Below are positions 34,363 through 57,330 of a stretch of 64,000 nucleotides of DNA, one piece after another. This stretch comes from Planctomycetota bacterium (GTDB taxonomy: Bacteria; Planctomycetota; UBA8108; SXIK01): positions 8,320,001 to 8,384,000 of the forward strand of contig OZ244999.1 of assembly GCA_965223265.1 (NCBI GenBank), given 5' to 3'. How positions within the stretch are numbered: position 1 is the stretch's first letter; each line of letters opens with the position of its first letter. The position numbers were made by a program, and so were the translations under genes. Under the pieces are notes generated by a model, which worked only from the letters and a program-made list of their open reading frames with translations, searched no databases and was not told the DNA's origin.

Positions 34363-34387
34363 GCGCGTCTCTTTTGCAACAATGGGG
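34363..34387. mobile_element. Orphan right end of the 210-bp MITE family
   Basis: GCGCGTCTCTTTTGCAACAATGGGG versus GCGCGTCTCTTTTGCAACGTTGGGG at 34596-34620. Also followed by ACAGAG. Confidence 0.7.
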
Positions 34388-34410
34388 ACAGAGACGGAGA
34401 CAGAGACAGA

Positions 34411-34620
34411 CCCGACAGTTGCATAAGTTTTCGCAGGAAGGGCTCAGAAACCCTTTCCCTGAGGTTCGATCGGCAGTTGAAGGACGTCGCGGCGGACCTC
34501 ACGTTTGGTGAGGTTGACGGTGTGCCGTGTTCCCCCTCGCCCACGCACACCCACACGCAAACTTTCACTCAATCGCAATCGCGCACGGTCTTAAGGCGCG
34601 TCTCTTTTGCAACGTTGGGG
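34411..34620 (+). mobile_element. 210-bp MITE, copy 1
   Basis: Near-identical inverted copy at 51251-51460. Imperfect IRs CCCGACAGTTGCATAAG and CCCCAACGTTGCAAAAG. ACAGA on both flanks. Confidence 0.88.
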
Positions 34621-34710
34621 ACAGAGACAGAGACAGAGACAGAGACAGAGACAGAGACAGAGACAGAGACAGAGACAGAGACAGAGACAGAGACAGAGAC
34701 AGAGACAGAG
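34621..34710. repeat. Microsatellite (ACAGAG)x15
   Basis: Perfect 90-bp hexamer array. Confidence 0.97.
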
Positions 34711-34777
34711 AGTGTTCCGCCCAAGCGCGGCTTCAGCCTCAGGCTGCGATGTCCACGAGCTGCCGCACGGCCGCTAG

Positions 34778-49338: not shown

Positions 49339-50367
49339 ATGAACACGAATCACGAAGAGCAGAAACAAGAGCTCACGCGCCGCTCCTTCATCGGCACCGG
49401 AGGATCATTGGTCGGCGCAGCGGCGCTTGGCGTCTCGCTGAGCGGATGCGAGACCAGCGCTCAGCTCTCCGGCGCCTCGAAAGGGTCTACGGACCTCGGT
49501 GAGATACCGCGTCGGCTGCTCGGACGCACAGGAGCGAAGGTCAGTCTTCTTGGCCTCGGTACTGCGTGCACTGGTGAAGGGCCTCAAACCACGGCCGAGT
49601 GCGTCGAGGTCTACAGCGAAGCGATCGACCGCGGTATCAACTACATCGACACCGCGCGAATTTACGGCAATGCCGAGGAGGCGCTGAAGGGGGTGCTGAA
49701 GACGCGGCGTGACGACGTCTTTTTGGTCACGAAGTGTTTTACGGACACGGCAGCCGAAGCGCAGGAGTCGTTCGAGACCTCGCTGCGCACCATGGGCGTC
49801 GATCACGTCGACGTTCTGCATTTACACTCGGCGGGCGATCGTGACCTCGATCGTGTTTTGGCGCCTGGCGGCGCCTGGGAGTATCTCCTCAAGATGAAGG
49901 AGAGCGGGAAAGCACGCTTCCTTGGCATCACCGGGCATAGTCGTCCTGCGAATTTTGTCCGCATGCTCGACACCAAACAGGTCGACGTGATGATGGTGGC
50001 CATGAACTTCGTCGACCGACACGTCTATGGTTTCGAGGAAAAGGTCCTCCCCCGGGCGCGAGAACTCGGCACCGGTGTCATGGCCATGAAGGTGTTCGGC
50101 GGAATCTTGGGTGGATTCGCATTCAACCGCCAGCGTCGTCCGTCGCAGATGAATCCCGCATTTCTGCAGATCGCGGCGCGCTACTCGCTCAGCCTTGAGG
50201 GTGTCACCGGCGTCGTGATCGGGTGTCACGACACGTCGGAGCTGCGGCAGAACATTCGTTACGTGCTCAACGCTCCGCCACTCTCCGAGGCGGAGCTCGC
50301 GGCTCTGAAGTCGCACGGCGAACGGCTGGCGGCAGAGTGGGGCCCGCGTTTCGGGCCGGTTGTGTAG
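49339..50367 (+). CDS. Tat-exported aldo/keto reductase
   Basis: TRRSFI Tat motif, LGRTG, GINYIDTARIYG, GITGH, AMKVFG. Confidence 0.92.
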   Translation: MNTNHEEQKQELTRRSFIGTGGSLVGAAALGVSLSGCETSAQLSGASKGSTDLGEIPRRLLGRTGAKVSLLGLGTACTGEGPQTTAECVEVYSEAIDRGINYIDTARIYGNAEEALKGVLKTRRDDVFLVTKCFTDTAAEAQESFETSLRTMGVDHVDVLHLHSAGDRDLDRVLAPGGAWEYLLKMKESGKARFLGITGHSRPANFVRMLDTKQVDVMMVAMNFVDRHVYGFEEKVLPRARELGTGVMAMKVFGGILGGFAFNRQRRPSQMNPAFLQIAARYSLSLEGVTGVVIGCHDTSELRQNIRYVLNAPPLSEAELAALKSHGERLAAEWGPRFGPVV

Positions 50368-50380
50368 TCGGCGTTAGGAT

Positions 50381-50617
50381 CAGAAGCAGAGACGGAAGCA
50401 GAGACGGAAGCAGAGACGGAAGCAGACGGAAGCAGAGACGGAAGCAGAGACAGAAGCAGAGACAGAAGCAGAGACAGAAGCAGAGACAGAGCAGAGACAG
50501 AAGCAGAGACGGAAGCAGAGACAGAAGCAGAGACAGAAGCAGAGACAGAAGCAGAGACAGAAGCAGAGACAGAAGCAGAGACAGAAGCAGAGACAGAAGC
50601 AGAGACAGAAGCAGAGA
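50381..50617. repeat. Tandem array of about 20 x 12-mer GAAGCAGAGAC(A/G)
   Basis: Read directly. Two units carry 1-2 nt deletions. Confidence 0.95.
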
Positions 50618-50642
50618 AGAGGTGTGCCGCCAAGGGGCGTTT

Positions 50643-50825
50643 GCGGCGGCGGTATTGTCGAGCGTAGCCGGAGTGCGGACGGGGTCAAGGGTGCCCTCGC
50701 TTCGCTCGGCGCTTCGCGCCTTCTGAGAGTGACCGCACCCCGTCCGCCCTGCGGCTCGGGGAGTGAAACGCCGCCGCGTCGGGCGTGCGGCGACAAGTCA
50801 CTGGGCCGTTGACCGGAGTCTTCTC
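50643..50825 (+). promoter_or_regulatory. Conserved nested-hairpin leader of four-helix-bundle gene A
   Basis: Two blocks near-identical to the reverse complement of 51994-52115. Stems at 50643-51/50769-77 and 50675-85/50737-47. Confidence 0.7.
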
Positions 50826-51149
50826 ATGGGCTTTCTCGCTTTGGATCACTCTGTTGGCATCGTTCGTCAGTTGCGTCCGCTTGTCTCGCGTGTGCGTCGT
50901 CACGACTCGAGGCTTGCCGCTCAGCTGCGCGACGCGGGGTCCTCCGTGGCGCTGAATTTGGGCGAGGGCAATCGGCGCTCTGGTCGTGACCGCGGGCATC
51001 TCTGGCGTGTTGCCTCAGGCAGTGCCGAAGAGGTGCGTACGGCGCTTCGTGTTGCTGAGGCTTGGGGCTACGTCGATGCGCAGGAGACAGCTTCGGTGCT
51101 TGGGGACATCGACGAGCTGCAGGCGATGCTTTGGAAGCTGACGCGCTGA
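50826..51149 (+). CDS. Four helix bundle protein A (23S rRNA IVP / bAvd-like fold)
   Basis: QLRDAGSSVALNLGEG and A.GSA.E family signatures. 107 aa. Confidence 0.9.
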   Translation: MGFLALDHSVGIVRQLRPLVSRVRRHDSRLAAQLRDAGSSVALNLGEGNRRSGRDRGHLWRVASGSAEEVRTALRVAEAWGYVDAQETASVLGDIDELQAMLWKLTR

Positions 51150-51163
51150 GCTTGGGGTCTTGG

Positions 51164-51193
51164 GCCCGTCGTGCCTTTTTTGGCGCGGCGGGT
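51164..51193 (+). terminator. Hairpin 3' of gene A
   Basis: GCCCGTCGTGCC-TTTTTT-GGCGCGGCGGGT, a 12-bp stem with G.U pairs on the sense strand. Confidence 0.5.
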
Positions 51194-51250
51194 TTGAGGC
51201 GGGGGAGAGGCAGAGGGAGAGACGGGGACGGAACCGGAGGCAGAGACAGA

Positions 51251-51460
51251 CCTCAACGTTGCAAAAGAGACGCGCCTTAAGACCGTGCGCGATTGCGATT
51301 GAGTGAAAGTTTGCGTGTGGGTGTGCGTGGGCGAGGGGGAACACGGCACACCGTCAACCTCACCAAACGTGAGGTCCGCCGCGACGTCCTTCAACTGCCG
51401 ATCGAACCTCAGGGAAAGGGTTTCTGAGCCCTTCCTGCGAAAACTTATGCAACTGTCGGG
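51251..51460 (-). mobile_element. 210-bp MITE, copy 2 (inverted)
   Basis: Reverse complement of 34411-34620, one terminal mismatch seen. ACAGA on both flanks. Confidence 0.88.
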
Positions 51461-51570
51461 ACAGAGTCAGAATCAGAGACGGATGACGGATAGAGATACA
51501 GAACCAGATGACAGAGTCAGCGACGGAGACAGAATCAGAGACGAGATGACAGAGTCGGAATCAGATCCAG
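51461..51570. repeat. Degenerate GA-rich hexamer tract
   Basis: ACAGAG TCAGAA TCAGAG ACGGAT...; a similar tract lies at about 51196-51250. Confidence 0.7.
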
Positions 51571-51584
51571 AAGTCGCCGTGAGC

Positions 51585-51612
51585 AGCGCCCGCTACGAAA
51601 GTAGCGGGCGCT
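51585..51612. terminator. Perfect hairpin 3' of gene B
   Basis: AGCGCCCGCTAC-GAAA-GTAGCGGGCGCT. Confidence 0.6.
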
Positions 51613-51624
51613 TGGGCGTCTCGC

Positions 51625-51948
51625 TCAGCGCGTGAGGCCGCTGAGAAGAGCTAGGAGTCGATCGAGGGTCTGGAGAGGCACTGAGACGTCTTCGGTCTTG
51701 AGATCGCCCCAGGCCACAGAGAGCTGCAGGGCAGTCTCGACCTCCCGGGCACTGCCGCGGGCAGCGCGGTAGAGGTGCAGCGGATCTTTCCCAGCGCGCT
51801 CGGCCCCCTCCGAGAGATTGAGCGCGACGGAAGAGGCAGCCCGACGAATCTGCCGATGGAGATCGGGATCAAGCCTCCGAAGCCGCAGCAATGGAGCCCG
51901 CAAGTCGCGAATCAAACCAAGACTGACATCGAGAGCGATGAAGCGCAT
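51625..51948 (-). CDS. Four helix bundle protein B (paralog of A)
   Basis: QIRRAASSVALNLSEG, ARGSARE. 107 aa, about 53/107 identical to A without gaps (hand count). Confidence 0.9.
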   Translation of the reverse strand: MRFIALDVSLGLIRDLRAPLLRLRRLDPDLHRQIRRAASSVALNLSEGAERAGKDPLHLYRAARGSAREVETALQLSVAWGDLKTEDVSVPLQTLDRLLALLSGLTR

Positions 51949-52115
51949 GAAAGACCTCCGCAGAACGTAGAGTGAACAGCTCCGCCGCGTCCGGGCGGCG
52001 GTACTCCACCCCCCGACGCGGAGCGGAGTGGGTGTCAAGGGCGCGCAGCGCCGAGCGCAGCGAGGGCACCCTTGACAGTTCCGAGCACCGCGTACGCTCG
52101 ACAAGACCGCCGCCG
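51949..52115 (-). promoter_or_regulatory. Conserved nested-hairpin leader of gene B
   Basis: Stems GGCGGCGGT/ACCGCCGCC (51994-52002/52106-14) and TGTCAAGGG/CCCTTGACA (52033-41/52069-77). Confidence 0.7.
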
Positions 52116-52124
52116 TACGGTGAC

Positions 52125-52230
52125 CTCCCACTCCTCCCACTCCTCCCACTCCTCCCACTCCGCCTCCCACTCCGCCTCCCACGCAAACGCAAACGCAAAC
52201 GCAAACGCAAACGCAAACGCAAACGCAAAC
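52125..52230. repeat. Compound microsatellite: (CTCCCACTC)x4, two longer variants, (GCAAAC)x8
   Basis: Read directly. Confidence 0.95.
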
Positions 52231-52344
52231 GAAGAGCCTGCCACCTTGGCGGCCGAATGGCGAAACTCCGACTAGCTCAGCGCCAGACCCAGGCTAGAAC
52301 ACCGTCCGGCAACGAACACGGGGTCCCATCGCGTGCGTCCGCTC

Positions 52345-53478
52345 TCACGGCGACGGTTTCCCCGCCTCTGACTTTTGAAACCGCTGCTTCATCCGACCCC
52401 AAAGACGCTGCAGCCAACGACCGCGGACGACCTTCTCGGTCGTTGTCTCCGCCGAGGCGTCAAACAGGTGACGCAGATCATCGACGAAGGCATCGTAGGA
52501 TTCCAGCACCGACTCGTAATAGCCCTTTTCGTGGATGCGCCTGAACGCCGTCGCGTAGTAGTCGATGAAATTGTCGTCGATCAGATCGAGCGCCACTTTG
52601 GCCGCACCGTGCGCGGTCTTGCCGGCGCGCACCATTTGTGTGAACGTCATCATGGCGACAGCGTTCGACACCTCGAAGAGGGAGCGCCCTTCGAGGCGAA
52701 CTGTGTCCTGGATCTCATTCCAGACGCGCTCGATGTCTTTTATGGGAACGAGACTCGCGAGGTCGGTCGTCTGCGATTGCTCGCGGAGCTGGGCGACCAT
52801 GGCCCGCAATTGATCCACTGTGACGGGTGGTGTGTCGAGACCATCTGCGAGGGTCCCCGAGGTCTTTTGTAACGCGTCGAGGAGACCATCGACGTTTTCG
52901 ATCGTATCGCTTTCGTCGATGACGCCTTGCTGACGCAGCTCGTCAACGAGCGCGTTGAGATAGGAGCGTGCGCCGAGGGCCACGTCGCTAAAGATGGCGA
53001 TCACCCAAAGCGGTGAAACGTGCATCACGGAGAGCCCGGCGATGTCGATGACGTTGCCGACGGCCTTCTTGACGACGAATTGATCATCTTCGCCGCTCGT
53101 GGTCTTCGCGTCTGCTTCGGGATTGTCTTTGTCACCCGAAGGTTTCAGACGTCCGACGTCATCGGCAAGAAAACCGAGCATCTTTTGCACCGTAATGTCG
53201 TAGAGGCGGCCACCCTTGAACGCGTCCGGCACAACGACCTTGGCTGCGTCGCGGACCGTGCGGCTGGTAGTGCCGATCATCGCGCGAGCCAACCGCTCCG
53301 GCACGCTCAAGCCTTAGACGGCAGCGTCGACGGCGGCCGACAACGCGTCTGTTGCCCCATCTTCGGGGCGGTTCGCCTCTGGGGACGCCTCATTCTCCAG
53401 TTCTCCGGAGCGTACGGAATCGCCGCTGCTCGCGTCCATGTTTGCCTCTTGTGGCTGGGTGGGATCGTTTGCTGGCAT
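52345..53478 (-). pseudogene. Hypothetical protein with an in-frame TAA at codon 55
   Basis: ATG at 53478 (AGGTGA upstream) reads 54 codons to TAA (53314-16), then the same frame continues GLSVPERLAR for about 320 aa. Confidence 0.55.
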
Positions 53479-54267: not shown

Positions 54268-54936
54268 ATGCTACCCCATTTGGTCAACGCGATACAGAGC
54301 TATGGCGAAGCTGTTCGCCGCCGTGAGATCCAGCCGACCTGTAACCGCTGCCCGAATTGCAGCGGGGAGCCAGATCGGTTCCGCTACCGCGGTCACCGAG
54401 AGCGCGTGTTCCTCGTTATCGTCAGGCGTCTGGTCGAACCTGTCCTGTCGCTTCTGAGTCGCTGGAAGTGTCCTCTGTGTAAGCGCTCCTTCACGCTCTA
54501 CCCGCCCTTCGCGCTGCCGGGGAAACGCTACGTTCGCGACTGCGTTTTCGATCACGCTCGGCGCTACCTCCAGATCGACGAGCTTTCGTATCGCGAAGCC
54601 GTCAAGGTCGAACACATGCCCGTCTTCCACGAGGGTGACGACAGGGGAGCGATCGACGAGCGCAGCCTCGCGCACTCAACACTTCATCGTTGGCTTTCGT
54701 TCTTTCGCTCTCTCAACGCCACGCTCCTGGAGGCTCTCCGCCTCATCCGAGAGCGCTCGGCGAGGTCCGACATCTTCCGCAAGGTCTTCGCCGTCCGTCC
54801 AGCCAAGTACCGAAGCGAATCACGGCGGGACACTCTCGTCGCGGCACTTCGAGCTCTCTCGATCGACCAGGTGTTCCGTTCCCTCTTCGGCCGATCGATC
54901 TTCCCCGACTTGGCAACCTCCGCAGCCTGGGCGTGA
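54268..54936 (+). CDS. Zn-ribbon/HTH transposon protein (DUF6431-like)
   Basis: CPNC...CPLCKRSFTLYPPFALPGKRY, STLHRW. Confidence 0.7.
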   Translation: MLPHLVNAIQSYGEAVRRREIQPTCNRCPNCSGEPDRFRYRGHRERVFLVIVRRLVEPVLSLLSRWKCPLCKRSFTLYPPFALPGKRYVRDCVFDHARRYLQIDELSYREAVKVEHMPVFHEGDDRGAIDERSLAHSTLHRWLSFFRSLNATLLEALRLIRERSARSDIFRKVFAVRPAKYRSESRRDTLVAALRALSIDQVFRSLFGRSIFPDLATSAAWA

Positions 54937-54976
54937 GCGAGAATCACGCCTCGCTCGCCCCATGCGAGGTGTGATC

Positions 54977-56539
54977 ATGAAAGCGAAAGATCTCGATTGG
55001 GCTATCTTCTGGGCGGCTCTTCTCCAGCCCGTCGTCATCGGCGAGGTGCCGGAGGAGGAAGCCGCGCGATTTCTCCGCGAGCTCGCCAAAGAAGAGCGCA
55101 TCTTTCCCGACGGATCGCGACGCAAGCCGGCTCTTTCGACCCTGAGGCGGAAGCTTCGCATCTATCGCGAGGAGGGCTTCGAGGGTCTTGCCCGCAGGCC
55201 GCGAAGCGATCGCGGGAAACCGCGTGCCCACGGCAAAGAGCTCGTCGAGAAAGCCGTCGAGCTGAAGCGTGATCAGCCACTGCGCTCCCACTTCGCCATC
55301 AACAAGTTCCTCCAGGCTCAGCACGGAAAGACCATTCCGCGTTCGACCCTCTTCCGCTACCTCAAGATCGCCGGCGCGACGCGGCTGAAGCTCGGTGTCG
55401 AGAGGAGGAAAGTCCGGAAACGCTGGACTCGTGACTCCACCCATGCCCTCTGGGTCGGCGACTTCGCCGATGGACCCTACGTGCTGCACGACGGCGAAGT
55501 CGTCCCCACCTTCCTCTGTGTTCTCATCGACTGCTACAGCCGCTCGCTCGTCGAGGGGCGCTACTACCTTCGGCAAAATCTCGAGGTCTTGATCGACTGC
55601 TTGCTGCGGGCGTGGGCCAAGCACGGTGCTTCGGACGAGCTCTATGTCGATCAGGCGAAGGTCTATATCTCCAAAGCGCTCAAGGCGGCATGCCTTGCCG
55701 TTGTCACCCGGCTCATCCATCGCGGCAAGGGCGATCCGCCACCGGGTGGTCTCGTCGAACGACTCATCGAGACGATACAGGGCCAGTTCGAGGCCGAGGT
55801 CAGAGCCGGCGAGATCCTCACTCTCGACTCGCTCAACGGAAGCTTCGATTCCTGGAAGACCGTGGCCTACCACCGCCAGGTCAACACCGAGACCGGCGAA
55901 ACACCCGAGGCACGAGCCGAGGCCGGCCTCAAACGGCCTATCCGACACGTCGACATTCAGCGCGTCACCGAGTTCTTCATGTGCCGCGAGACGCGGCGCG
56001 TTCACCCGGACTTCTCCGACGTCCAGCTCGATCGCCGCTTCTATCGCGTCGACAAGAGTCTGCGCGGTGACAAGGTCGAAGTCCGCTACGATCCCTTCTC
56101 CGCGCCCGACACGGTTCTCATCTACTCCAGCAACGAAGAGTACCTCGGAAAGGGCGTCCTTCACGAGCGCGAAGAGGGCGAGGACGCCGGTGCTCCCGCC
56201 CCTCCCGCCAAAGCGAAGCACAACTATCTGGAGCTTCTTCGCCGTGAGCACGACGAGGAGCTCAAGAAGCGCGCCCAGGGGATCGACTACCGTCGTGTCA
56301 TCGCCTCTCGCCAGTGGCCCTTCACCGACTTCGCATGCCTTCTCGGCCGGCTCATGGGGCGCAAGGGCGCCCTCTCGAGCTTCACCGCCGAGGAGCTCGA
56401 GGAACTCAAGAAGTTCTACAACCGTACTCCCAGCCTCACCGAAGTCCTCTTGCTGAGGGCCTTCGAGAAGGCTCCGGAGAAATCCATTCCCTACATCGCC
56501 TACGAGCTTCAACGACTCGCAGGCAGAAAGGAGGACTGA
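54977..56539 (+). CDS. Mu/integrase-like DDE transposase
   Basis: HTH with RSDRGKPR, WVGD, IDCYSR, LYVDQ, GLVER, Mu-transposase C-terminal-like VEVRYDP. Start MKAKDL after GAGGTG. Confidence 0.9.
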   Translation: MKAKDLDWAIFWAALLQPVVIGEVPEEEAARFLRELAKEERIFPDGSRRKPALSTLRRKLRIYREEGFEGLARRPRSDRGKPRAHGKELVEKAVELKRDQPLRSHFAINKFLQAQHGKTIPRSTLFRYLKIAGATRLKLGVERRKVRKRWTRDSTHALWVGDFADGPYVLHDGEVVPTFLCVLIDCYSRSLVEGRYYLRQNLEVLIDCLLRAWAKHGASDELYVDQAKVYISKALKAACLAVVTRLIHRGKGDPPPGGLVERLIETIQGQFEAEVRAGEILTLDSLNGSFDSWKTVAYHRQVNTETGETPEARAEAGLKRPIRHVDIQRVTEFFMCRETRRVHPDFSDVQLDRRFYRVDKSLRGDKVEVRYDPFSAPDTVLIYSSNEEYLGKGVLHEREEGEDAGAPAPPAKAKHNYLELLRREHDEELKKRAQGIDYRRVIASRQWPFTDFACLLGRLMGRKGALSSFTAEELEELKKFYNRTPSLTEVLLLRAFEKAPEKSIPYIAYELQRLAGRKED

Positions 56540-57330
56540 TGTTCACCACCCATTTCAAGATGACGACGCAGCCCTTTCTCGAGCGCGCGCCCGTCGAGCA
56601 GATTCTTTCCGACGAGCGCATCACCCAGGGACTCGCTCGACTGGAGTACCTCGCCAAGTCGGGCTCGATCGGCCTGGTGACCGGACTCACCGGGGTGGGG
56701 AAGTCGTCTCTGGTGAAGCTCTTCGTGCGCTCGCTGAGCCGCAACCTCTACGACCCGATCTATCTCTCGCTGACCTACGTCGGGGCAAACGGCATTCTGA
56801 AGCTCCTGGTTTCCAGCCTCGGCGAGCAGCCCCGCCGTGGCAAGGAGCGGCTCTTCCTCCAGATCCTGGATCGCGTCGGGGCGAACGAGCACACGACAAT
56901 CCTCGTCATCGATGAAGCGCACCTGCTTCCTTCGGAGTCGCTCACCGATCTGAGACTTCTGGTCAGCTCCGGACTCGAGGACGGCCCGCCATTGAAGATC
57001 CTCCTCAGCGGACAAGAGACCCTGAGAAAGGAGCTTACCCGAGCGCGCCACGCCGATCTCACGCATCGGCTCAGCGTGCGCTACCACGTGCCGCCGCTCA
57101 GCAAGGAGCAGACGGTCGAGTACATCGACTTTCAGATGCGCGCAGCCGGCGCCTCGCAGAAAGTCTTCGAGCCTGAAGCGAAGTCGCTCATCCACGACTA
57201 CTCAAGCGGCGTGCCGCGGCGCATCAACAACATCGCCACCGCCTGCCTCATTCAGGCCGCGAGCAAGAACGTCCAGAAGATCTCCGAGGCGCTCGTCAAC
57301 GACACCGCCCCCGAGTTCCATCTGCCCTGA
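56539..57330 (+). CDS. ExeA/TnsC-like AAA ATPase
   Basis: Walker A GLTGVGKS, Walker B VIDEAH, SGVPRRINN. TGATG coupling to the transposase. Confidence 0.92.
   Translation: MFTTHFKMTTQPFLERAPVEQILSDERITQGLARLEYLAKSGSIGLVTGLTGVGKSSLVKLFVRSLSRNLYDPIYLSLTYVGANGILKLLVSSLGEQPRRGKERLFLQILDRVGANEHTTILVIDEAHLLPSESLTDLRLLVSSGLEDGPPLKILLSGQETLRKELTRARHADLTHRLSVRYHVPPLSKEQTVEYIDFQMRAAGASQKVFEPEAKSLIHDYSSGVPRRINNIATACLIQAASKNVQKISEALVNDTAPEFHLP

Follow-up and report, generated by a model that had tools for sequence, protein, structure and literature searches.

We describe here a gene cassette that has multiplied in the genome of a Planctomycetota bacterium (GTDB lineage Bacteria; Planctomycetota; UBA8108; SXIK01). 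The starting point is a 64,000-nucleotide stretch of this genome, hereafter the window (NCBI GenBank assembly GCA_965223265.1, contig OZ244999.1, positions 8,320,001 to 8,384,000 of the forward strand), in which two convergent genes, A and B, each encode a 107-amino-acid four-helix-bundle protein. Each gene belongs to a cassette that is an mRNA-level module, composed of a 5' hairpin of about 130 nt, a selected 107-amino-acid open reading frame (ORF) and a 3' hairpin. The convergent pair A→ ←B, and not the single gene, is the unit that has recently spread. Direct observation covers the anatomy of the locus, the copy number, the covariation of the leader and the strand on which it folds, a link to tandem repeats that extends across phyla, a polarity rule, a bias relative to replication, and selection on the ORFs. 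The explanation we favour, to which we give about an even chance, is that these are selfish cassettes without an enzyme of their own, which resemble the intervening sequences (IVSs) of 23S rRNA and are copied with their orientation kept.

Where the 3' ends of two convergent host genes face each other, the interval 50375-52250 is a patchwork of repeated DNA. A repeat-coverage scan shows that the entire interval recurs elsewhere in the 9.18-Mb genome and that the flanking genes are single-copy. The hexamer tracts of the genome fall into two classes, class 1 (CRGANN) and class 2 (CSCANN), and both are found at this locus, together with a miniature inverted-repeat transposable element (MITE). In window coordinates, the features are the following.

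49339..50367, + strand: aldo/keto reductase (AKR) host gene (PF00248, 120 bits), without repeat coverage.
50381..50617, + strand: upstream 12-mer array (CAGAAGCAGAGA)x20, a class-1 hexamer tract with CRGANN on the + strand (Tandem Repeats Finder, TRF).
50618..50825, + strand: leader A, 208 nt, with a covarying hairpin core at 50637-50780 (covariance model, 103 bits, sense strand).
50826..51149, + strand: gene A, 324 nt, encoding a 107-amino-acid four-helix-bundle protein of the A subfamily (profiles, structure model, fold matches).
51165..51192, + strand: 3' hairpin of A, CCCGTCGTGCC / TTTTTT / GGCGCGGCGGG, 11 bp with two U.G pairs on the sense strand.
51193..51250, + strand: left part of a degenerate class-1 hexamer tract (sequence and comparison of pairs).
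51251..51460, + strand: MITE 'C', 210 bp, with terminal inverted repeats that match imperfectly, CCYCAACGTTGCAAAAG ... CTTATGCAACTGTCGGG, and in its interior a variable tract of ACGC type (genome copies).
51461..51570, + strand: right part of the degenerate class-1 hexamer tract, NNCAGA units (TRF, 51460-51559).
51585..51612, - strand: 3' hairpin of B, 12 bp with a 4-nt loop (sequence).
51625..51948, - strand: gene B, 324 nt, encoding a 107-amino-acid four-helix-bundle protein of the B subfamily (profile matches).
51949..52125, - strand: leader B, 177 nt, with a hairpin core at 51992-52122 (covariance model, 120 bits).
52124..52231, + strand: class-2 tract with CSCANN on the + strand, (CCTCCCACT)x4.2, (CCTCCCACTCCG)x2.7 and (ACGCAA)x8.5 (TRF).
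52345..53310, - strand: host gene without an assigned family, the single-copy right flank (orthologues in the same-order genomes G001 and G002).

The AKR gene is single-copy, its stop codon lies 13 nt ahead of the 12-mer array, and it runs in the same direction as gene A. Likewise, the right-hand host gene has its stop 113 nt from the class-2 array and the same direction as gene B. The two cassettes can be aligned with each other through leader, gene and hairpin, and some parts of the leader are more conserved than the coding sequence. In the 3' hairpin of A, C-to-T changes among copies preserve pairing solely on the sense strand.

An earlier, sequence-only reading of this locus had described two convergent genes of 324 nt with about 50% amino acid identity, no gaps and the same ending, ACGCGCTGAGC. 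This description was correct (49.5% identity). The same reading listed an identical order of parts in both cassettes. Array, leader (208 and 177 nt), coding sequence (CDS) and 3' hairpin (11 and 12 bp) do follow one another in this order, but the supposed two sets of downstream hexamers are a single tract, split by the 210-bp MITE that had gone unnoticed. It had also taken the single gene as the unit, whereas it is the pair that has recently spread. The interval is not a unique locus, all of 50375-52250 being repeated. Overall, the observation behind that reading is confirmed as real, and its interpretation is partly supported.

The spread of the pair is documented by its copies. A tblastn search locates 41 places in the genome, comprising 36 full-length open copies and 5 broken ones, and a Pfam search of the genome gives 39 matches, of which 36 are above the cut-off. 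The copies form two subfamilies, with 17 intact members in A and 19 in B, sharing 80-98% identity within and about 50% between subfamilies. Seven loci carry a convergent A→ ←B pair, and at six of them the CDSs are 91-99% DNA-identical to those of the window, and these near-identical pair units of about 1.5 kb stand in separate unique contexts. Furthermore, 4-5 single genes adjoin remnants of a partner, namely a piece of B leader next to A, or fragments of the A terminator or gene next to B; at least the young singles are therefore decayed pairs. Decay takes other forms as well, including a frameshifted A, truncated B copies, an A copy with its hairpin deleted, and a remnant in which the first half of a leader (about 100 nt) is fused to the last 34 nt of the gene. 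With 36 intact and 5 decayed copies and 7 pairs, the units are multicopy, which supports this side of the earlier suggestion of mobile or amplifying units.

The surroundings of the pairs recur in part. The 12-mer array of the window, in 11-27 copies, is found upstream of A in 5 other pairs and in an A-only copy at genome position 7738813. The pair at genome position 8978541 has a single 12-mer unit on its A side, and the divergent pair at 8820275 has a (GAGACA) array instead. The array starts within about 20 nt after the last stop of the upstream sequence in five copies of the pair type, four of them pairs and the fifth the A-only copy at 7738813; in two further pairs, it starts about 60-110 nt past that stop codon.

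Proteins A and B, each of 107 amino acids, align without gaps and belong to the same family. Both score above the cut-offs of PF05635 (A 54.5 and B 48.8 bits; cut-off 33.8) and TIGR02436 (A 56.5 and B 49.2 bits; cut-off 24). The AlphaFold2 model of A (predicted local distance difference test score 97) consists of four helices, and its best Foldseek matches are 2rld (TM 0.88) and 2gsc (TM 0.80-0.86), followed by Avd, the accessory protein of diversity-generating retroelements (DGRs), at TM 0.81-0.85. Predicted structure and Foldseek together identify an up-down four-helix bundle like that of 2rld and 2gsc; both of these entries contain five chains, and 2gsc is the sole match in a sequence search of the PDB. 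These results agree with the family (TIGR02436) and the bAvd-like fold that had been proposed from the sequence, the latter at the level of a predicted structure. To our knowledge, the very large family PF05635/TIGR02436 has had no function assigned to it since its discovery within 23S rRNA intervening sequences. The ratio of nonsynonymous to synonymous substitution rates (dN/dS) has a median of 0.144 over 125 pairs of A genes and of 0.133 over 163 pairs of B genes, values indicating that the cassette ORFs are under purifying selection.

The leader forms a conserved RNA structure. We aligned 22 leaders from this genome (G000) and 5 from G007, a genome of the same order. On this alignment, RNAalifold predicts one long hairpin of about 130 nt with 32 pairs, 13 of which have compensatory double changes; helix 2 holds nearly all of the covariation (11 of its 14 pairs). 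In the leader structure 95.9% of cells are paired, compared with 35-57% when partners are slid by 1-3 columns, and the covariation score of 0.291 is reached by 0/500 shuffles (0.119 in shuffles). The alignment contains 83 G.U cells, with two invariant U.G pairs among them, versus 7 A.C cells, which shows that the helix exists on the sense strand. The covariance model likewise favours the sense strand, with 97-145 bits, over the antisense strand, where the same places score 31-41 bits. Each of the 32 matches of at least 97 bits lies directly upstream of a four-helix-bundle gene. The weaker sense matches come from the five leaders that are interrupted, a single deletion derivative and about five remnants standing alone. 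With its covariation on the transcribed strand and its linkage to the gene, the leader has the marks of a structured, putatively cis-acting RNA. Within the window, leader A carries a 12-nt insert in helix P3 and has a P2 that is divergent yet complementary (alignment and pair counts), and leader B has six mismatched bases in helix P2b.

The leader apex (GGGUGCCCUCGCUGCGCUCGGCGCUUCGCGCCC) and an internal loop are nearly invariant across A, B and G007. This is the pattern expected of a sequence-specific binding or cleavage site, and conservation thus suggests a putative site of this kind. The 3' strand of the closing helix (CGCCGCCGC) has two possible partners, one being the far 5' strand and the other a GGCGGC-type copy that follows directly downstream. 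The alternative pairing is present in the window at 50780-50800 and 51975-51995 and in all aligned leaders (columns 142-165) in A, B and G007. It may constitute an alternative-pairing switch; the bases involved are invariant and so show no covariation.

Among 21 genomes of the order, the leader model has matches in G000 and G007 only. Other lineages have a different long hairpin in the leader position. In a metagenome-assembled genome (MAG) of the Sandaracinaceae (Myxococcota), the 3' arm of this hairpin contains the Shine-Dalgarno sequence and the start codon, and in G005 the 3' arm contains the Shine-Dalgarno sequence. The apex of the Sandaracinaceae hairpin (UUCGCUCUGCGCUCA) and that of the planctomycete hairpin (CUCGCUGCGCUCGG) have the word UCGCU...CGCUC in common; their stems are unrelated.

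The cassettes are tightly associated with tandem repeats. A repeat lies within 500 bp upstream of 29 of the 36 genes, compared with 8.3% of random 500-bp windows, and within 300 bp downstream of 24 of the 36, compared with 5.4% at random. Five of the seven genes without an upstream repeat have a 2.7-kb insertion in the leader. The association extends to relatives: where enough flanking sequence is available, repeats are found upstream of 19/20 and downstream of 15/29 genes. In the Sandaracinaceae MAG, all eight genes whose flanks were examined have arrays on at least one side (7/8 upstream, 8/8 downstream), and the repeat unit is TCCGNN, with 196 matches versus 0 in a reversed control. Enrichment of repeats and leader motif at homologues, which the sequence-only reading had proposed as a check, is thus present both in this genome and in relatives, and its view that the architecture and not the repeat sequence is conserved fits the arrays with other units, such as TCCGNN, beside relatives' genes.

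Tracts and genes obey a polarity rule. The tracts on the two sides of a gene are direct, with equal polarity, and not inverted; their period is 6, and also 12 or 18. At the window locus they keep a single polarity from end to end. The motif CNNANN is on the sense strand of 17/17 A genes and 0/19 B genes. Similarly, the Sandaracinaceae MAG contains two groups of genes, X with '+' polarity (3/3) and Y with '-' polarity (5/5). In a FastTree phylogeny X and Y cluster together, apart from A and B.

Polarity is also related to replication. GC skew places the origin at about 7.9 Mb and the terminus at about 3.5 Mb. Relative to these, A is on the leading strand in 16/17 copies and B on the lagging strand in 15/19. 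By locus, the arrangement with A leading and B lagging is found at 24/29 (binomial p = 5e-4), a bias relative to replication that takes the form of two opposite classes; long coding-like ORFs are 50.6% leading. Subfamily, tract polarity and replication direction are thus connected by a strict rule, and this in a genome without strand bias among its ordinary genes. The genome contains 186 tract loci in total, 54 within 900 bp of a gene copy and 132 without a four-helix-bundle gene, and the CNNANN strand is the leading strand at 46/54 of the former and 93/132 of the latter. These loci were collected by regular expression, for which the reversed-genome control is uninformative in the case of class 2.

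The gene-less tract loci have a composition of their own, with further short modules common to 105 of the 132. The junctions between class-1 and class-2 tracts (e.g. genome positions 8820020, 1305930, 2327190 and 5503190) carry a short conserved word, GAGACGGGCCGC, or a palindrome, GAGTACTC. A pairing of class-1 with class-2 tracts as the two arms of a hairpin was considered and dropped, as it applied to one unit variant only, with 4/6 matches. Some tracts lie in frame within ORFs as (Ser-X)n. At the tract locus near genome position 2029547, hexamers of the same class are in frame in an apparent long ORF and encode (Ser-Asp/Val/Ala/Glu)n; the TCYGNN strand of class-1 tracts in general reads as Ser-X codons, as do the Sandaracinaceae units. 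A small AT-rich hairpin (GGGAAAAGGGGAACGTCCCCTTTTCCC) is recurrent in the Sandaracinaceae tracts.

Other mobile elements have inserted into the units. The 51251-51460 element has the inverted ends, short duplication and many non-coding copies of a MITE. There are 17 near-full copies in the genome and many fragments, with imperfect 17-nt inverted ends. All 17 near-full copies lie inside class-1 tracts, in both orientations (6 and 11), and the MITE has no replication bias (6/17). Most copies have matching flanks of about 5 bp, a duplication that is hard to delimit within a repeat. Among the seven gene pairs, the MITE is absent in two and otherwise sits at two positions and in both orientations. 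From this comparison, it is an independent, later insertion that splits one shared tract behind A and B. Because most tract loci have no gene and the MITE also lands in tracts, the role of a matrix or landing pad seems to suit the tracts better than that of a product. A second MITE copy in the window, at 34416-34620 (region 34387-34711), is full-length, 99.5-100% identical to the one between the two genes, and lies between (GACAGA)x4 and (GACAGA)x15; here the insertion is in a tract without any four-helix-bundle gene. In a G007 cassette, the inverted-end word of the MITE (GCAACTGTCGGG) is found downstream of the gene, beside a tract, which suggests that MITE, tracts and cassettes travel together in two families of the order.

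In 6 B leaders elsewhere in the genome, a 2.7-kb element (e.g. genome 7186300-7189300) is inserted, always at the same position; its copies are 99.4-99.8% identical, and it encodes a 702-amino-acid large serine recombinase and a 149-amino-acid ORF without a family. Given this single insertion point, the B-type leader is the apparent attachment site of the element. The site is empty in leader B of the window. One A leader contains another small MITE. Accordingly, the statement that no dedicated recombinase is adjacent stands for the window locus and fails for these six B leaders.

The distribution of the cassettes is patchy. With protein A as query, no match was found in three genomes of the same family (completeness 80-96%). 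A four-helix-bundle gene is present in 5 of 17 other genomes of the order, G007 having 15 matches, many of them at contig ends. A separate search found copies in Myxococcota MAGs, including Sandaracinaceae. Neither array nor cassette follows the AKR orthologues of G001, G003 and G007 on their 3' side. In G001, the orthologues of the AKR gene and of the right-hand gene are 30 kb apart and in another orientation, so that an orthologous junction does not exist. The locus is not syntenic, and cassettes that were not found in three genomes of the same family are present in another family and another phylum, both in support of the sequence-only reading.

The closest described system is the ORF-bearing 23S rRNA IVS. 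Such IVSs occur in Leptospira, and the insertion is in helix 9, 25 or 45 of 23S rRNA. In the excerpts of PMC4990558 used here, the IVS of Coxiella burnetii with its S23p protein, which belongs to the same PF05635 family, combines a small ORF with a long stable RNA stem-loop; the same excerpts read the sporadic distribution of rRNA IVSs as horizontal transfer, call them selfish, describe their cutting by RNase III and give no known mobility enzyme for them. The cassettes are alike in having a PF05635 protein, a small ORF with a long hairpin, a sporadic distribution and no enzyme of their own. They differ in their location, as they are not in rRNA and have protein-coding genes as neighbours. Rfam gives no match in the window at gathering thresholds, only chance-level matches in 50300-52300 at E<=10, and no rRNA. 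Moreover, the cassette hairpin is wholly upstream of the ORF, whereas the IVS stem, formed by the complementary ends of the element, encloses it. Finally, unlike IVSs, the cassettes are flanked by direct six-base tracts, are present in about 36 copies per genome, form convergent two-gene units, and have an orientation tied to replication. With the clusters known as bacterial interspersed mosaic elements (BIMEs) or repetitive extragenic palindromes (REPs) and with MITEs, the cassettes have in common short modules of variable order in the 3' space between convergent genes, and a role as targets for other mobile elements. In contrast to these, they carry a conserved, selected gene and structure at the RNA level, and their matrix is a polar microsatellite. 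Our literature search brought up no description of free-standing four-helix-bundle cassettes with arrays, and none of hexanucleotide tracts in Planctomycetes.

In the explanation we favour, the cassettes would be transcribed by read-through from the upstream host gene, and the long hairpin could act as a site of processing or control, at which the cassette mRNA is released or gated, by analogy with the excision of rRNA IVSs by RNase III. New copies would arise by orientation-preserving copying, for which the flanking tracts would provide a landing pad or homology arms. The existence of two orientation-locked lineages points to a step of spread that preserves orientation relative to the tract. 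An enzyme inserting at random would mix orientations and a single strand-specific enzyme would yield one class, whereas copying templated by tract homology, or insertion of the tract as part of the element, would retain the orientation of each lineage. The features that accompany the gene also suggest that bacterial microsatellites may act as insertion matrices, both for gene cassettes and for MITEs.

A number of observations weigh against this explanation. In the cassette itself, neither defined termini nor duplications of the target could be found, and the nearest genomes are of other genera, in which the AKR and right-hand genes lie 30 kb apart, and thus offer no clean empty site. That 36 copies are under strong purifying selection would also fit a gene family of use to the host. 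Since the paralogues are related, copy counts overstate the number of independent events. As to transcription, the upstream gene is co-oriented with the cassette in 22/31 cases, a weak figure that comes from a crude ORF caller. Scans for sigma-70 promoters and intrinsic terminators found none upstream of either gene, and read-through is neither shown nor excluded by them. As to control, the Shine-Dalgarno sequence is mostly predicted to be paired in this genome (mean unpaired 0.17), without a consistent partner. Finally, the nearly arrayless A side of the pair at 8978541 fits arrays that expand after arrival better than arrays needed as homology; on account of this pair, the arrays can still be either landing pad or by-product.

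An alternative that we consider rather unlikely is that a strand-specific enzyme encoded elsewhere mobilises the cassettes in trans, as non-autonomous elements. Candidates would be a single-strand transposase of HUH or RAYT (REP-associated tyrosine) type acting on hairpins at the fork, or the serine recombinase recognising the B leader, with the tracts as no more than preferred targets. Replication-biased orientation is a hallmark of single-strand transposition, as in IS608-type elements, and the bias at 24/29 loci would be explained in this way. No part of the unit is more conserved than the hairpins, the large serine recombinase element sits at one identical position in 6 B leaders, and a bona fide MITE targets the same tracts. 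A single strand-specific enzyme, however, should produce one orientation class, and here two homologous units are fixed in opposite orientations. In A as in B, the asymmetry of G.U pairs marks the sense strand as the folded one, which is the lagging template for A and not for B. The missing termini and target duplications count against mobilisation in trans as well, and the serine-recombinase element interrupts the leader instead of flanking the unit. We also think it unlikely that the genes are an ordinary, host-useful family of paralogous small nucleic-acid-binding proteins with an autoregulatory leader RNA, and that the repeats beside them are incidental, consisting of intergenic DNA prone to slippage, of a kind common in this genome. 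In favour of this, each of the 36 full-length copies has an open reading frame, dN/dS is about 0.14, the hairpin apex is as nearly invariant in A, B and G007 as a binding site would be, 132/186 tract loci have no such gene, and tracts are also found in frame within ORFs as (Ser-X)n. Against it stand near-identical 1.5-kb pair units at 6-7 unrelated sites, each just behind a host gene, the many decayed copies, and a distribution in which the genes were not found in three genomes of the same family and are present in another family and phylum. Arrays with other units beside relatives in other phyla (19/20 upstream) speak against incidental repeats, and the strict polarity rule is left without an explanation.

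The model put forward by the sequence-only reading, in which a self-contained cassette encodes a protein that binds its own leader and creates or extends simple repeats by slippage or template switching at the fork, is in our view quite unlikely. The arrays beside cassettes are perfect and differ among loci, which makes them young; the 12-mer unit upstream of pair-type A resembles the leader start (GCAGAGAAGAG); and tract polarity is tied to replication. The protein has the fold of Avd, which according to the part of PMC10053308 drawn on here works on nucleic acid with a polymerase. Against this, the cassette encodes only a 107-amino-acid helical bundle and is thus not self-contained, and cassettes that generate repeats do not explain why 132/186 tract loci are without a gene, why the MITE also lands in tracts, or why the polarity bias persists away from genes (93/132 loci). 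The related proposal that the genes are Avd subunits of DGRs is close to excluded. It has in its favour the common fold (TM 0.81-0.85 to Avd structures 4DWL and 8UBE) and, in the same part of PMC10053308, the statement that no family is found next to DGR reverse transcriptases more often than PF05635. The protein shares 10% sequence identity with Avd, however, and the cassettes, unlike DGRs, have no reverse transcriptase or template and variable repeats nearby. Genome-wide there are 4 RVT_1 matches, with equal scores, at 1.90, 3.42, 3.52 and 5.91 Mb, none near any of the 41 copies, and this distance argues that the genes are not DGR subunits. The earlier remark that neither rRNA nor reverse transcriptase is adjacent therefore stands, with no rRNA match of Rfam in the window and no RVT_1 match near the copies.

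Beyond the IVS-like explanation we can imagine a bolder one, which at present seems improbable, namely that cassettes and polar six-base tracts are one replication-coupled system. The tracts would be portable landing pads or homology arms laid down with the direction of the fork, and the cassette would be copied from tract to tract without change of orientation, perhaps by means of a ring-forming protein bound to the invariant hairpin apex or the tract. If this were true, orientation-locked lineages would have arisen independently in Planctomycetota and Myxococcota, the PF05635/IVS family would have its first function, and genes would be mobile in a way that needs no transposase. The hairpin with its invariant apex, the microsatellite link in two phyla and the polarity rule point to leader RNA, tract DNA and the replication fork as candidate sites of action.

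The window contains one further mobile region, 2.4 kb from the cassette pair. At 54635-57330, a Mu/Tn552-type DDE transposase (rve, Mu-transpos_C, HTH_32) is followed by an AAA ATPase, and an ORF of the DUF6431 family (54268-54936) precedes the transposase. This region is probably a separate transposon.

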